DNA of 64,000 nucleotides from Pirellulales bacterium (GTDB lineage Bacteria; Planctomycetota; Planctomycetia; Pirellulales; PALSA-1355): the NCBI GenBank assembly GCA_963733035.1, contig CAVTBU010000005.1, positions 2,144,001 through 2,208,000 of the forward strand, read 5' to 3'. Position numbers and translations under genes: made by a program. Positions 50,199 through 56,130 of this stretch are shown in pieces. The notes below the pieces were generated by a model, which was not told the origin of the DNA, did no database searches, and saw only the letters and a program-made list of their open reading frames with translations. The first letter of the stretch is position 1; each line of letters opens with the position of its first letter.

Positions 50199-50609
50199 AT
50201 GAACAACGATCTGCAAGACCGCCGTGGCTCGTTCCTGCATTTGCTTGCCGTGGGCGCGGCGCTCGCCGCACTGATTGCCGTGGTACTCGTAATCCAAACT
50301 ACGAGCGGGTGGAAAACTGCCGTGCCGTTGAAACCGAGCGATTCGCTCTCGTTGTGGCGTGCATCCAGCGAGGACGAGAAACGCGTTACGGCCGAAGTGA
50401 TTGTGGACGAACTTCGAGCGGCACACGTGCTCGGCCCGCAGACCTCCGCGAAGCTCGACCAGCCTGGTGGGAAGAAAGAACTCGTCGACGCACTCATTTT
50501 AAAACTTGATGAGGCCACGAATCCTGATGTCACAGCGTATGTCTCCCCCGGCGACACGATGATCAAGACCGCAGAAGAAGTAGCTCCCCAAGAAGGCTGG
50601 GACCAATAG
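50199..50609 (+). CDS. Hypothetical single-TM protein
   Basis: N-terminal TM; fills the gap between the MFS gene and the liv operon. Confidence 0.6.
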   Translation: MNNDLQDRRGSFLHLLAVGAALAALIAVVLVIQTTSGWKTAVPLKPSDSLSLWRASSEDEKRVTAEVIVDELRAAHVLGPQTSAKLDQPGGKKELVDALILKLDEATNPDVTAYVSPGDTMIKTAEEVAPQEGWDQ

Positions 50610-50745: not shown

Positions 50746-51960
50746 ATGGCCCGCTTCCTGCCACCGCTGCTGCTCATCGCCCTGCTGGTGGTCACCATGA
50801 TCGTGGGGCTGGCCGGTTCGGGTGGCGGTAATCCGCACGTCATCAAGATTGTTTCCAGCCTTCCGCGCACCGGCAGCGCGAAGGCGCAGACCGACACGAT
50901 CGTCGGCGGAATCAAGATTGCCCTGGCCGAGGCCAACTACAAGGCCGGCGAGTTCGACATCGAGTTTGCTGACTGGGACGATGCCACGGCCGGAGCCGGC
51001 CAGTGGACTGCCGAAGCCGAAACCGCCAACGCCAACCGCGCGGTGAGCGACCCGGACGTGATGATTTACATGGGAACCTACAATTCCGGCGCGGCCAAGA
51101 TATCCATGCCCATCCTGAACAAGGCCGGTCTGCTGATGATTAGTCCGGCCAACACGTGGCCCGGCCTTACGAAGCCGGGCATGGGAGACCCGGGCGAACC
51201 GGACATCTACCGCCCCAGCGGCAAGGTGAGCTACCTGCGGCTCGTGCCGACCGACGATTTGCAGGGCCCGCTGGGGGCCGTTTGGGCCAAGGAGCTTGGC
51301 GTTGGCCGCGTCTATGTCCTCGATGACAACGAGGTCTATGGCAAGGGCATTGCCACGCTCTTCATCGATGCCTGCCAGGATCTGGGTATTGAAGTTCTCG
51401 GGCACGAAAGCATCGATGTTAAGGCCCAGGAGTTCAAACCGCTGATGGCCACGATCAAGGGCCTCGACCCGGACCTGGTTTATTTTGGCGGAACGACACA
51501 GAGCAAAGGAGGACAAATCGCCAAGGACATGGTCGCCGCCGGACTCGACTGCAAGCTGATGGTTCCCGACGCGTGCTATGAGGAGGCGTTTATCGAGTCG
51601 GCAGGGCCCGAGAACGTCAATGACCGCGTGTACGTCACTTTTGGCGGTCTGCCGCCGGAACAACTGACCGGGCCGGGCAAGGCGTTTGTCGACAACTATC
51701 AAAAGCGGTTTGGCAAGTTGCCAGAGGGCTACGCGATTTACGGTTACGAGGCAGCCAAGGCGGCACTCGAGGCAGTTCGTCTGGCGGGTATCAAGGACCG
51801 CGAGGCGATTCGGCAGGCGGCGCTAAGCATTCACAACTTTGACCGAGGCGCGTTGGGCACCTGGTCGTTCGACGAAAATGGTGACACCACGTTGACCACG
51901 ATCAGCGGCATTCGCATTCACAACGGAAAGTTCGAGTTTGTCAAAATCCTTGGCCAATAG
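50746..51960 (+). CDS. Branched-chain amino acid ABC transporter substrate-binding protein (LivJ/K-like)
   Basis: N-terminal hydrophobic anchor, GTYNSG, ISPANT, DDLQG, YGKG.A, G.WSFDENGD. Confidence 0.92.
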   Translation: MARFLPPLLLIALLVVTMIVGLAGSGGGNPHVIKIVSSLPRTGSAKAQTDTIVGGIKIALAEANYKAGEFDIEFADWDDATAGAGQWTAEAETANANRAVSDPDVMIYMGTYNSGAAKISMPILNKAGLLMISPANTWPGLTKPGMGDPGEPDIYRPSGKVSYLRLVPTDDLQGPLGAVWAKELGVGRVYVLDDNEVYGKGIATLFIDACQDLGIEVLGHESIDVKAQEFKPLMATIKGLDPDLVYFGGTTQSKGGQIAKDMVAAGLDCKLMVPDACYEEAFIESAGPENVNDRVYVTFGGLPPEQLTGPGKAFVDNYQKRFGKLPEGYAIYGYEAAKAALEAVRLAGIKDREAIRQAALSIHNFDRGALGTWSFDENGDTTLTTISGIRIHNGKFEFVKILGQ

Positions 51961-52011: not shown

Positions 52012-52977
52012 ATGCGCGCCGTGATGTCACCCATGTTGTTAGCCGCCGCCGATGCAAACGCCTGGCAGACTTTGCTGCAATACACCCTCATCGGCCTGAC
52101 CAACGGGGCGCTGTTCGCGCTGATTGCGCTCGGCTACACGATGGTCTATGGGATCATCGAGTTGATCAATTTCGCGCACGGCGAAGTCTTCATGCTAGGT
52201 TCCTTCCTGGCGCTGGCCTTGATCGGGGTGCTCGGTCTGGAGGACGCGAGCGCCGTGCATTTCTGGCTCGGCATCGTCGCACTGTTAATCGCGGTGCCAG
52301 CCTTTTGCGGTGGATTGAATATGGCGATCGATCGCATCGTGTATAAGCCGCTTCGCAACGCGCCCAAGCTCGCGCCGCTGGTGTCCGCCATTGGCGTTTC
52401 GTTCGTGCTCATGAACGTTGGCCTGTTGTGGGGCGGAGCCGCCGACAAGCACTTTCCGGACCTGGTGTCACGTCACAACCTGTTCGGCGAGCAGGCCGCG
52501 GTCAGCTTCACCAACAAGGACTTGATGGTGATGGTCGTGACCGTGCCGATCATGATCGCCCTGACCTTGTTCGTCAAAGGCACCAAGCTCGGCAAGGCGA
52601 TGCGAGCCACCGCCCAGGATCCGGTCGCCGCACAGCTAATGGGTATCAATGTCGACCGCGTCATTGGAGTCACCTTCGCTCTCGGTGGAGGGTTGGCCGG
52701 CGCGGCGGCAGTGATCTACGGGCTGTATATCAACACGGTCAGCTACCAGATGGGCTTTACCAACGGCCTGTACGCGTTCACGGCCGCCGTGCTTGGAGGC
52801 ATCGGCAATATTCCCGGCGCGGTGCTGGGCGGACTGGTGATTGGGTTGGCTCGCTCGTTTGGCTCCGGTTACGTGGGTGAACGTTGGACGAGTGCTCTGG
52901 TGTTCGTGATCCTGATTGCGATTCTCGTGTTCCGCCCAGAAGGGCTGCTCGGCACGCGCACGCGGGAGAAGGTATGA
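52012..52977 (+). CDS. livH: Branched-chain amino acid ABC permease
   Basis: LIALGYTMVYGII.LINFAHG, GKAMRA, AFTAAVLGGIG. Confidence 0.93.
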   Translation: MRAVMSPMLLAAADANAWQTLLQYTLIGLTNGALFALIALGYTMVYGIIELINFAHGEVFMLGSFLALALIGVLGLEDASAVHFWLGIVALLIAVPAFCGGLNMAIDRIVYKPLRNAPKLAPLVSAIGVSFVLMNVGLLWGGAADKHFPDLVSRHNLFGEQAAVSFTNKDLMVMVVTVPIMIALTLFVKGTKLGKAMRATAQDPVAAQLMGINVDRVIGVTFALGGGLAGAAAVIYGLYINTVSYQMGFTNGLYAFTAAVLGGIGNIPGAVLGGLVIGLARSFGSGYVGERWTSALVFVILIAILVFRPEGLLGTRTREKV

Positions 52978-54089
52978 CGCGTCCCAAACGCCACCTGCCA
53001 AAATGGATTGAGAGCGGGCGGGTGTGGCCAGTGTATCTGGCTGTGCTGTTCATCTACCCGCTATTGGTCTATCCCGACCAGGTGCTCTTTCGCTGGACGC
53101 AGATCTCCATCGGGATGCAACTCACCTATATCTTCATCTATGCCATTTTGGCCCTCGGTCTGAACGTCGTCGTTGGCTATACGGGCATCTTGCATTTAGG
53201 GATTGCCGCCTTCTTCGGCATCGGGGCGTACATCACGGGCATCCTGGCCGTCCCAGCATATCCTTTTGGATTTGGATTCTTGGCGACTCTCGTGTGTGCC
53301 ACGGCCGGCGCGGCACTCACGGGCATTCTACTCGGAGCCCCGACGCTACGGCTGCGGGGTGATTACGTGGCCATTGTCACCTTGGGCTTTGGCGAGGTGA
53401 CCCGTTTCACACTCCGCAACCTCGAGGAGATCACCGCCGGCACGCGCGGTTTGAATCCGGTGCCACCGCCACATCTGCCGGCCTTCTTGCATCGCCCCCT
53501 GGGCTGGCTGGGAATCCAACCGGATTGGAGTCTCGACTATCGGCTGTTCTATTACCTGGCGCTGGGCATTTTACTACTCGTCGTGTTGTTGCTGCGAAAC
53601 CTCGAACGGTCCCGCCTAGGCCGCGCCTGGATCGCGATTCGCGAAGACGAATTGGCCGCCACTTGCATGGGCATTAATGCCGCCCGGGTCAAGCTCTCCG
53701 CTTTTGCCCTGGGCTGTGGTCTGGCCGGCATGGCTGGTTGTCTGTATGCCACCGCGCTAACCAGTACGGCCGGACCCGATGCCTTCGATTTCAATCGTTC
53801 CGTGATCATGCTCTGCTGCGTGATCCTCGGCGGACTGGGAAGTATTCGCGGCACGCTGCTGGGCGTGTTCCTGCTGGTCGGATTCGACAATGTCGTTGCG
53901 CCGGCACTTGACGGGATGCTGCAGCGAGCGAACATCAACCCCGGCGGCAGCGCGCTGCTGACCTTCAGCAATTGGAAGCTGATGATCTTCGGCTTGGCAC
54001 TGATCCTGATGATGCGTTTCCGACCCGAGGGCCTGCTGCCCTCGCAGGAGATTGAAGCGGAGTTGCACGCGGCGGGAGGTGCCCGGTGA
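52974..54089 (+). CDS. livM: Branched-chain amino acid ABC permease
   Basis: LGLNVVVG, RLRGDY.AIVTLGFGE, GRAWIAIREDE, RPEGL; ATGA coupling to livH. Confidence 0.93.
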   Translation: MTRPKRHLPKWIESGRVWPVYLAVLFIYPLLVYPDQVLFRWTQISIGMQLTYIFIYAILALGLNVVVGYTGILHLGIAAFFGIGAYITGILAVPAYPFGFGFLATLVCATAGAALTGILLGAPTLRLRGDYVAIVTLGFGEVTRFTLRNLEEITAGTRGLNPVPPPHLPAFLHRPLGWLGIQPDWSLDYRLFYYLALGILLLVVLLLRNLERSRLGRAWIAIREDELAATCMGINAARVKLSAFALGCGLAGMAGCLYATALTSTAGPDAFDFNRSVIMLCCVILGGLGSIRGTLLGVFLLVGFDNVVAPALDGMLQRANINPGGSALLTFSNWKLMIFGLALILMMRFRPEGLLPSQEIEAELHAAGGAR

Positions 54090-55417
54090 GCCTGCTGGAA
54101 CTGGAAAAATTGACCGTGCGGTTCGGTGGTTTGACGGCCGTCGAAAACGTCGAGACGCGCGTCGAGCAGGGCCGCATCTTTTCGATCATCGGACCCAACG
54201 GCGCCGGTAAGACCACCGTCTTCAACGTCATCACCGGCATCTACGATCCAACGTCCGGGCACGTCAAGTTTCGCGGGCGTGAACTGATGCGACTCTTCAC
54301 CTGGAGAGTCGGCCTGGCCGCAATGCTGGTCGGTCTGGTGACCGGACTCGTAGCAGCGCTCCTGGCGCTGAACGTTGACGCGCTGTGGCGGGCCACGATC
54401 AAACGCAACTACGCGGGACCCGGAGCAACCTTTTCCTATCGCGCGGCCTGGGACGACGCCGGGAACTACCTCGACGGCAAGTTGGCCCTCGAACCGATTC
54501 GCGGCGGTCGCTGGGCGGTACGCACCGCCGATGGCCGGCGTACGTTGGGATTTGCCAAAACCCGTAAAGCCGCGGAACAATCGCGCGAGCAATTCAACAA
54601 GCTGATTGATGCCGGCCGTCGCTATAACAATGGTACGAGCGATCCAATTCGCCAGCAGAATGACCATTGGGTGATCACCAGCGACGGCCTAGCGCTGGCC
54701 ACATTCAACTCCGAGTCGGACGCTCGCTCGCTGCTCGACAAGTACGCCAACCTCGCGCACGATCCGGTTTCGCGCAAGCGCGATAGCCTGCTTGCTCTCT
54801 TCGGAGGCATCGTGCTCGGCACCGCCGGCACACTCGCCGTTTGGAGCCGGGCTCGCCGCTCACCCGAAGTGATCGCCCGGGCCGGGATCGCCCGTACGTT
54901 TCAAAACATTCGGCTGTTCCAGAACATGACCGTGCTCGACAACGTGCTGACGGCGATGGACCGCCGCATCCGTGGTGGCGTCATTCGCATGGCTCTGCGA
55001 ACGCCTGGAATTCGTCGCCATGAGCGTGAAGCCCGCGAGCAGGCCCAGGAGTTGCTCAATTTCGTCGGCTTGGCCGACCAACAGCACATGCTTGCCAAGA
55101 ATCTGCCCTATGGCGACCAGCGACGACTGGAGATCGCCCGCGCGCTGGCCACACGGCCTGATCTCGTGCTGCTCGACGAACCGGCCGCCGGCATGAACCC
55201 GGCCGAATCGCTTGAGTTGAACGGTCTCATCCAGGAAATCCGTGCCCGCGGGCCGACCGTAATGCTGATCGAACATCACATGAACGTGGTGATGGGGATT
55301 TCCGATCGGATTGCCGTGCTGGAATATGGCCGCAAGATTGCCGAGGGAACGCCGGACGAGATTCGCAACGACCCAAAGGTCATCGCCGCGTATCTTGGCG
55401 ACGAAGAGGTGACTTGA
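54086..55417 (+). CDS. livG: LivG-type ABC ATPase with a ~190-aa two-TM insertion
   Basis: GPNGAGKT, ARTFQNIRLF, LPYGDQRRLEIARALA, LLDEPAAG, LIEH; 443 aa. Confidence 0.9.
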   Translation: MSLLELEKLTVRFGGLTAVENVETRVEQGRIFSIIGPNGAGKTTVFNVITGIYDPTSGHVKFRGRELMRLFTWRVGLAAMLVGLVTGLVAALLALNVDALWRATIKRNYAGPGATFSYRAAWDDAGNYLDGKLALEPIRGGRWAVRTADGRRTLGFAKTRKAAEQSREQFNKLIDAGRRYNNGTSDPIRQQNDHWVITSDGLALATFNSESDARSLLDKYANLAHDPVSRKRDSLLALFGGIVLGTAGTLAVWSRARRSPEVIARAGIARTFQNIRLFQNMTVLDNVLTAMDRRIRGGVIRMALRTPGIRRHEREAREQAQELLNFVGLADQQHMLAKNLPYGDQRRLEIARALATRPDLVLLDEPAAGMNPAESLELNGLIQEIRARGPTVMLIEHHMNVVMGISDRIAVLEYGRKIAEGTPDEIRNDPKVIAAYLGDEEVT

Positions 55418-56130
55418 TGCCGCCGCTGTTGGCCGTTGAAAACTTGCGGGCGGGCTACGGCCCGATTGAAGTCCTCAAGGGCCTGTCGCTCGAAGTGCGG
55501 CCGGGCGAAATCGTGGCACTCATCGGCGCCAACGGTGCCGGCAAGACGTCCACGCTGATGAGTATCTCGGGCTGTGTGAGGCCGCGTTCCGGGCGGATTC
55601 GCCTCGCTGGTCGAGAGATCCACACCTTGGCGCCTCACGAGATCGTACGGCTGGGTGTCTGCCATTCGCCCGAAGGTCGCAAAATATTTCCCCGACTGAC
55701 GGTGCTCGAAAACCTGCAGATGGGCGCGTTCGCCAGTCGCAACAAGCCGCAAATCGAACGCGACCTGGCGCGTGCCTTCGAATTGTTTCCGATTCTCAAA
55801 CAGCGACGATCGCAAGCCGGCGGCACGCTCTCCGGTGGCGAACAGCAGATGCTAGCCGTTGCGCGAGCCATGATGGGTGGGCCCAAATTGCTGCTGCTCG
55901 ACGAACCTTCGCTCGGGCTGGCACCTCTCATCGTGCTGAAGATCTTCGAAGTCGTGCGCAAACTGAACGACGACGGGATTTCGATCCTGCTCGTCGAGCA
56001 GGCCGCAAGGATGGCGCTCAAGCTCGCCCATCGAGGATACGTAATGGAAACCGGCGAGATCACGATGAGCGGATCGGCGGCGGAACTGCTGGCCGACCCG
56101 CGGGTACAGGATGCTTATTTGGGTGGGTAG
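55417..56130 (+). CDS. livF: Branched-chain amino acid ABC ATPase
   Basis: GANGAGKT, PEGRKIF, LSGGEQQML, LDEPSLGLAP, AYLGG. Confidence 0.94.
   Translation: MPPLLAVENLRAGYGPIEVLKGLSLEVRPGEIVALIGANGAGKTSTLMSISGCVRPRSGRIRLAGREIHTLAPHEIVRLGVCHSPEGRKIFPRLTVLENLQMGAFASRNKPQIERDLARAFELFPILKQRRSQAGGTLSGGEQQMLAVARAMMGGPKLLLLDEPSLGLAPLIVLKIFEVVRKLNDDGISILLVEQAARMALKLAHRGYVMETGEITMSGSAAELLADPRVQDAYLGG

Follow-up and report, generated by a model that had tools for sequence, protein, structure and literature searches.

ABC importers are generally taught as soluble ATPases working with separate membrane subunits, and the canonical LivG ATPase is a soluble protein of about 255 residues. The closest described relatives of the protein analyzed here are the LivG subunits of LIV-I/HAAT importers (E. 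coli NP_417912.1; family model NF008449; MJ1267, PDB 1g6h, 1gaj, and 1g9x). The livG gene studied here lies in a 64,000-nucleotide stretch of Pirellulales DNA (the window) and shares with these systems the gene order of E. coli livK-H-M-G-F, the ATPase motifs, the combination of PF00005 and PF12399, and the fold. It differs in carrying an insert of 188 residues, with two predicted membrane helices, where canonical LivG has a plain span of 53 residues. An earlier note on this DNA did not recognize the architecture, and our search of open-access articles likewise found no description of a hairpin nested in LivG. The layout is real and is apparently an undescribed variant of the LIV/HAAT importer.

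An ABC ATPase subunit with a transmembrane segment of its own is known from TagH of Bacillus subtilis, where the segment reportedly matters for transport under stress (Yamada et al. 2018, doi 10.1099/mic.0.000674). The TagH system is an exporter, whereas the window system is of the importer type. The TagH segment is reportedly a single helix appended after the nucleotide-binding domain (NBD) and not a hairpin nested inside the fold. A second parallel is LptB2FGC, in which the LptC helix is an accessory membrane helix that takes part in the coupling of ABC ATPase and permease (PMC9544173). LptB is the closest solved fold to the window NBD. However, LptC belongs to an LPS-extracting system and is a protein on its own, whereas the window helices are covalently part of the ATPase. 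Closer to the locus itself, LivM-LivG fusions tie LivG to the membrane and to LivM in 9 of 31 complete insert-free sister operons examined, by a C-terminal gene fusion to a plain NBD rather than by an internal hairpin. The two genes form a single fused ORF at L194, L195, L225, L228, L230, L238, L249, L260, and L264.

The window operon comprises one binding protein, two PF02653 permeases, and two ATPases in the order livK-livH-livM-livG-livF (Table 1). There is a 4-nt overlap between the livM stop and the GTG start codon of livG, and a 1-nt overlap between the livG stop and the livF ATG. The Walker A/B, Q-loop, signature, and H-loop motifs of LivG are intact. Both the coupling to livM and livF and the preserved motifs had been noted earlier. 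In operon content and in these motifs the locus corresponds to a LIV/HAAT importer. The LivG tail matches PF12399 at 54.8 bits (cut-off 25.5). The whole protein, with 443 residues and two hydrophobic helices, departs from the soluble form of about 255 residues and reaches 301.9 bits against NF008449 (cut-off 362). LivK scores 87 bits against NF011933 (cut-off 477) and is 24-31% identical to the binding proteins of distant plain operons. All models of the urea importer UrtABCDE (TIGR03407-03411) scored under their cut-offs, for example UrtD with 201.6 against 304.1. With all catalytic motifs present, the operon should encode an ATP-driven importer, whose substrate is assumed, from the family to which it belongs, to be an amino acid or amide.

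A livK-like gene lies upstream of livH in nearly all long loci of the clade. The leader of window LivK (50746-50830) is long and hydrophobic and has no lipoprotein cysteine; the LivK leaders of relatives appear by eye to be of lipoprotein, Sec, or Tat type. A 136-aa ORF directly upstream of livK (50199-50609) has one hydrophobic N-terminal segment and a weak Pfam match only, and had no match in the fetched clade loci. The flanking MFS, 136-aa ORF, HIT, and dGTPase genes are not kept with the operon outside close relatives.

Table 1. Features of the liv operon and of the LivG insert, in window positions
Feature	Position	Strand	Evidence
livK-like substrate-binding protein	50746..51960	+	404 aa from ATG at 50746, matching the protein record (404 aa); PF13458 E 5e-34
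livH-like permease	52012..52977	+	PF02653; NF008011 E 8e-68, under cut-off
livM-like permease, short N-terminus, no DUF3382-type extension	52974..54089	+	PF02653; NF008450 E 2e-63, under cut-off
livG-like ABC ATPase, 443 aa, 188-aa insert	54086..55417	+	PF00005 in two stretches, PF12399 tail
Walker A GPNGAGKT, LivG residues 36-43	54191..54214	+	Motif reading
Predicted membrane helix 1, residues 73-95	54302..54370	+	KD 2.56; model helix 73-94
Two amphipathic helices (97-108, 118-130) around F116; conserved core	54374..54475	+	Model; median hydrophobic moments 0.38, 0.45
Repeat unit 1 (three strands and one helix; residues 132-182), optional within the family	54479..54631	+	Model, profiles
Repeat unit 2, residues 186-232, continuing into long helix that leads to membrane helix 2	54641..54781	+	Model, profiles
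Predicted membrane helix 2, residues 234-253, Gly-rich, ends at invariant W253	54785..54844	+	KD 1.91
Q-loop glutamine Q273 of LivG	54902..54904	+	Motif reading
Signature (340-344; LPYGDQ), Walker B (360-365; DE 364-365), H-loop H397 of LivG	55103..55276	+	All intact
livF-like ABC ATPase, normal length	55417..56130	+	NF008626 E 3e-75, under cut-off

The span from Walker A to the RTFQN motif measures 241 residues in window LivG as against 53 in plain LivG, giving an insert of 188 residues. Positions 54287-54856 translate in frame into 190 residues without a stop, which bears out the earlier claim of an in-frame insert of about 190 residues between Walker A and the Q-loop. Only two 19-residue segments in the whole of LivG exceed a Kyte-Doolittle (KD) value of 1.5, at residues 77-95 (2.56) and 234-253 (1.91), and these are the two hydrophobic helices that had been read as bounding the insert. 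The GC content across the insert (0.64-0.65) is slightly above that of most flanking segments (about 0.58-0.62).

AlphaFold2 modeling of LivG from a 75-sequence alignment gave a mean pLDDT of 89.9. The model has a helix at residues 73-94, short helices at 97-108 and 118-130, two units of three strands plus a helix, and a long helix (210-258) that ends as the second hydrophobic segment. The insert folded alone showed the same elements (pLDDT 88.4). The best Foldseek matches of the NBD were LptB and MJ1267. The polar loop of some 140 residues described earlier is present, except that it starts with the two amphipathic helices, which belong to the conserved core. The likeness of the two units in this loop did not stand out in pairwise comparison within the window protein (115 of 2000 shuffles reached the score) but emerged from family profiles (hhalign 95.4%, E 1.8e-8).

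A misassembly was ruled out because homologues carry the same insert. The case rests on these homologues and not on reads, support from which is thin: of the two junctions that the earlier note proposed to cover by read mapping, the left was bridged by one contig with 0 differences, and the right by no contig extending 31 letters or more. Read joints that skip the insert seem to derive from genes of other organisms, pieces of which match at low identity. Of 8000 candidate proteins, 81 matched the insert region at E<=1e-3, an insert profile matched 174 cluster representatives at 50% identity, and the junction pattern was found in at least 119 genome loci, of which, among those listed and judged by eye, one has a plain LivG and two are too short to judge. 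Among the matches listed, 80 have long flanks, and 71 of these 80 have both motifs in one frame; all 71 have a span of 129-359 residues, compared with 53 in plain LivG. The carriers among the matches listed are by record title Pirellulales, Gemmataceae, Phycisphaerales, Myxococcota, Verrucomicrobia, and Hydrogenedentales, and all are MAGs.

The order livK-H-M-G-F was found in nearly every locus long enough to judge, and L055, L112, and L128 are without some of the flanking-gene matches. The insert was seen almost only within LivG: no free-standing hairpin turned up among the proteins of 49-189 aa searched, which does not prove its absence, and the 21 profile matches without NBD motifs look like fragments, frameshifted or degenerate LivG, and a few probable chimeras. 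An origin of the insert by copying of LivH or LivM helices is not supported (hhalign probabilities of 0.7% and 1.1%). Among MAGs of Planctomycetota, Myxococcota, Verrucomicrobiota, and Hydrogenedentota, the insert is the mark of a single livK-H-M-G-F operon lineage. The operons at L059, L063, L071, L086, L092, L101, L121, and L126 carry the titles Kuenenia, Bifidobacterium, and Alcaligenaceae, yet they or their near sequence relatives are placed among planctomycete rows; they may be mislabelled MAGs or transfers.

Within the window's phylum (401 genomes), 23 genomes matched the insert profile, one of them falsely. LivH identity across this phylum is bimodal (>=55% or <=48%), and the insert is present in 22 of the 26 genomes of the upper group. 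In the other 4 livG could not be linked: in three it is cut off by a contig end, and of the four checked, G069 did carry the insert, while the two genes of G185 are on separate contigs. Of 251 genomes from a Myxococcota centre, the 13 that have the clade LivK are the same 13 that have the insert. The LivH and LivM trees unite all insert carriers (46/46) in a single clade, with SH-like support of 0.997 and 0.904, respectively; the concatenated, LivG, and LivF trees do not. Their nearest relatives have plain LivG, in some cases fused to LivM. The gene trees omit 18 near-duplicates as well as 3 of 94 operons in which the LivH match was wrong or which were duplicates; 8 of 58 near-duplicates were left out of alignments A3-A5, and the outliers L057 and L095 out of the N-terminus comparison. 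Two plain-clade LivG proteins have smaller additions of their own, one of 24 residues at the same pre-Q-loop site (L179; G073:C17) and one of about 42 polar residues before the signature (L178; G089:C2).

The core of the insert is a fixed hairpin of about 88 residues, to which up to about five outer units may be added, with span sizes clustering at 138-143, 189-221, 226-247, and 327-411 residues. The short form, found in 29 of 51 aligned members, consists of helix 1, helix 2, and between them a pair of amphipathic helices flanking an invariant Phe. Residues F116, G245, W253, and R257 are invariant in 51/51. Helix 1 has a KD value of at least 1.6 in 49 of the 51 homologues; helix 2 reaches 1.6 in 41 and 1.3 in all. 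The homologue search suggested earlier thus returned a widespread insert in which the helices and invariant residues are kept. The hydrophobicity of the helices throughout these homologues, together with the confidently predicted model, supports the proposal of a membrane-anchored LivG with an outward-facing part. All parts of the insert have dN/dS values of 0.18-0.49 in four groups with intact operons. Foldseek returned nothing for the insert at E<=1e-3, VIA-align gave generic helical hairpins (best Z 6.3, rmsd 4.2, 73 aligned), and the ESM Atlas gave no match for the insert alone, while one short-form member matched three LivG-type clusters. These searches do not show a new fold.

The explanation that we consider probable, if by a modest measure, is that the hairpin is an accessory membrane subunit built into LivG, which anchors the ATPase, is most likely packed on LivM, and aids the assembly or holding of the complex. 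LivG of a LIV/HAAT-type importer would thereby have turned into an integral membrane protein. A module of about 88 residues would enter the membrane as a helix, lay two amphipathic helices on the outer leaflet, and return as a helix, with both its exit from the ATPase domain and its re-entry located at the rim of the groove into which the coupling helix of the permease fits. Hydrolysis of ATP by LivG and LivF would still drive uptake in the window genome, and the two outer units would be an optional, lineage-tuned extension. What is observed is the insert sequence with its conservation, modularity, and selection, and its retention in relatives without a working ATPase (below); that the module crosses the membrane, contacts LivM, and plays a structural role is what we infer. 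Modeling of the insert in complex with LivH and LivM scored 0.30 against a mark of 0.32, which speaks neither for nor against a contact. Residues P97, F98, R208, E211, and L227 of window LivM are near-invariant in the insert clade and different in sister operons. LivM residues 96-98 and 208-227 are candidate contact sites, a pattern that shared ancestry explains equally well. Against the anchoring role stands the fact that nothing in the permeases has visibly been replaced: the need for a hairpin is not obvious because sister operons manage with plain LivG and with LivM and LivH of the same build.

Relatives without a motor bear on what the insert does. A degenerate LivG query matched, at E<=1e-70, 136 of 161 genomes in a single family of the same order, among them 19 of the 21 of genus g354; these counts refer to kin and not to independent events. 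In the g354 LivG proteins (L335:4317-8887 (G829:C5), L336, and L367-L383), GK(S/T), the Q-loop Gln, and the signature Gly are each kept in 0/19 and the H-loop His in 0 of 18 readable sequences, while the Walker B Glu is kept in 17. No livF lies downstream of livG in any of the 17 loci with downstream sequence, and no LivF orthologue was detected in any of the 21 genomes (63-95% complete), where the best matches have 35-37% identity and the one tested is LptB; PF12399 was found in 0/5. Further degenerate insert-bearing LivG proteins occur in two other genera: a copy at L384 (G932), and partly decayed ones at L385 and L386 (G915 and G967), where livF is present with 40-42% identity to that of the window.

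The livK, livH, livM, and livG reading frames of g354 are open and under purifying selection. Median pairwise dN/dS is 0.055 for the insert (0.045 for its repeat part) as against 0.148 for the dead NBD, and 0.052, 0.081, and 0.052 for LivK, LivH, and LivM, respectively; these are NG86 estimates on related, non-independent genomes, omitting for g354 codon pairs outside dS 0.2-1.5. The neighbouring recQ has a value of 0.10 (one pair). Identity within LivG is 80% in the insert and 57% in the NBD. Intact operons that appear to be related show the opposite order, with 0.137 for the NBD and 0.18-0.30 for the insert (a pooled estimate). Since the insert is under strong selection where the catalytic motifs and any detectable LivF are gone, gating of ATP hydrolysis, which the earlier note had entertained, cannot be its only job, and on our best reading the insert is not mainly an ATPase gate. 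Within g354 the constraint is strongest on the repeat part, which points to a specific contact more than to simple tethering. LivK of g354 also differs at several positions that its intact relatives conserve. Compared with the intact consensus, LivH residues 191-217 and LivM residues 213-240, which we take to be the coupling segments, keep 7/27 and 19/28 identities. Because the LivH segment has decayed where livF was lost and that of LivM has been kept, the pattern suggests that LivF pairs with LivH and LivG with LivM. We put forward, tentatively and as less probable than the anchoring role, that the nested hairpin is a functional membrane subunit and that at least one genus of planktonic-type Pirellulales relatives has made the importer ATP-independent. 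Binding protein, LivH, LivM, and a dead LivG scaffold might then sense a ligand or serve as a carrier, whether facilitated or ion-coupled, and the window protein would be the still-powered form.

The strong constraint on both the repeat part and LivK in g354 (0.045 and 0.052) could also reflect a role for the outer face of the insert in docking LivK or placing it on the permease, in the manner of the MalF P2 loop. The amphipathic helices and F116 are kept in all forms, and a clade LivK or LivH accompanies the insert in 13/13 and 22/22 judgeable genomes of the two phylum samples. However, this co-occurrence is expected from operon linkage, and LivK N-termini are mixed (lipoprotein, Sec, Tat, uncleaved) with no evident tie to repeat number by eye. 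Moreover, the number of repeat units varies within single taxa, and the 29 short-form members have none. Because these 29 are almost without the outer domain (mean loop 37 aa), the earlier suggestion that it serves generally as a sensor or as a dock for the binding protein does not hold for the family, and we regard LivK docking as unlikely.

The position of the insert on the ATPase allows a further explanation, that of a trans-membrane lever by which a signal or lipid outside tunes ATP hydrolysis, by analogy with the tuning of LptB2FG by the LptC helix. Residue A264 of LivG corresponds to LptB A76, so helix 2 runs into the equivalents of LptB L72 and H73 (LivG P260 and E261, just after the helix). 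These two LptB residues gave in vivo cross-links in the groove that faces the membrane and accommodates the coupling helix (PMC5082905). From this rim, a hairpin could plausibly pass into the membrane next to the permease. In the model, helix 2 is continuous with the helix lining the groove, 20 residues before the Q-loop, and an accessory helix can modulate an ABC ATPase (PMC9544173). Yet constraint on the insert rises instead of falling where the ATPase is dead and LivF has been lost, and the putative sensor part is optional. A lever thus seems to us slightly less credible still than a dock.

The insert may instead have arisen by accident and become entrenched, the stability or solubility of the permease now depending on it with no new function gained. 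It is absent from sister operons, its repeat units come and go, and no loss of the hairpin core was found within the insert clade. A second, sequence-unlike hairpin, at a different surface of the protein, has also appeared in LivG, an observation that fits the preferred explanation as well. In 18 of 206 LivG proteins the span from Q-loop to signature is 113-135 residues as against about 67, with two hydrophobic segments in 17 of them. All 13 Myxococcota genomes have the longer span, and two segments exceed the threshold in 11. Carriers (L052, L053, L115, L119, L233, and L313-L325; P0086 and P0098) are mostly Myxococcota, and their LivG has up to four predicted membrane helices. On a quick tree, which contained hairpin-1 columns and was hence unused for counting hairpin-1 gains, the second hairpin sits in at least two places, two members lying outside the main group. 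The specific invariant residues F116, G245, W253, and R257 and the very low dN/dS of the outer repeat in g354 speak against mere entrenchment, which we hold to be improbable. It overlaps the preferred explanation, the main difference being whether any benefit exists.

Topology was read from hydropathy, flanking charge, and the folded model, which agree on a two-pass hairpin. In another reading, the helices do not cross the membrane but form a re-entrant or in-plane anchor at the cytoplasmic face, with the repeats as cytoplasmic binding modules. The repeat units resemble in predicted topology DUF2188 (PF09954) and YegP/UPF0339, which are small soluble proteins. Weak PF09954 matches occur in 7 of 19 insert members (best E 7e-4) and none for the window protein, which stays under significance; Foldseek related the repeat weakly to YegP (2k8e), with a probability of 0.44 and E 0.29. 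Unlike DUF2188 and YegP, the window units are nested between membrane helices and vary in copy number within the family. Helix 2 is Gly-rich and only moderately hydrophobic. Lys/Arg residues just before it number 0.8 in short forms and 3.3 in long forms, whose loop is net positive, and this basic cluster fits an outside location less well. However, two hydrophobic helices of about 20 residues are present in all members, and in short forms about 3 Lys/Arg on each inner flank of the hairpin against the 0.8 before helix 2 give a clear charge bias. A non-crossing anchor is the least probable of these alternatives.

Finally, the insert does not replace the DUF3382 extension (PF11862), the extra two-helix membrane element of E. 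coli-type LivM, an idea that arose from long LivM N-termini in 8 of 16 distant plain operons (one read by eye): the nearest insert-free operons are also without DUF3382, with short LivM N-termini (43-92 codons), and profile similarity is lacking (hhalign probability 0.4%, E 0.17; no PF11862 match on the insert).

The LivG protein of the window departs from the textbook division between soluble ATPases and membrane subunits, with predicted membrane helices threaded through the ATPase fold beside the coupling groove in an operon lineage that spans several phyla. Annotation overlooks the insert, for which no Pfam or NCBIfam model scores above cut-off. The family is a natural series for the coupling of ATPase and permease, because its members differ in the number of outer units (from zero to about five), in having a single hairpin or two, and in whether the ATPase is live or dead. 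The pattern of gene loss predicts the pairing of LivG with LivM and of LivF with LivH; no permease structure came to light for this family, a PDB search having returned no LivM relative. Should the motor-less form remain capable of transport or sensing, it would represent an ABC-derived system that runs without ATP hydrolysis.
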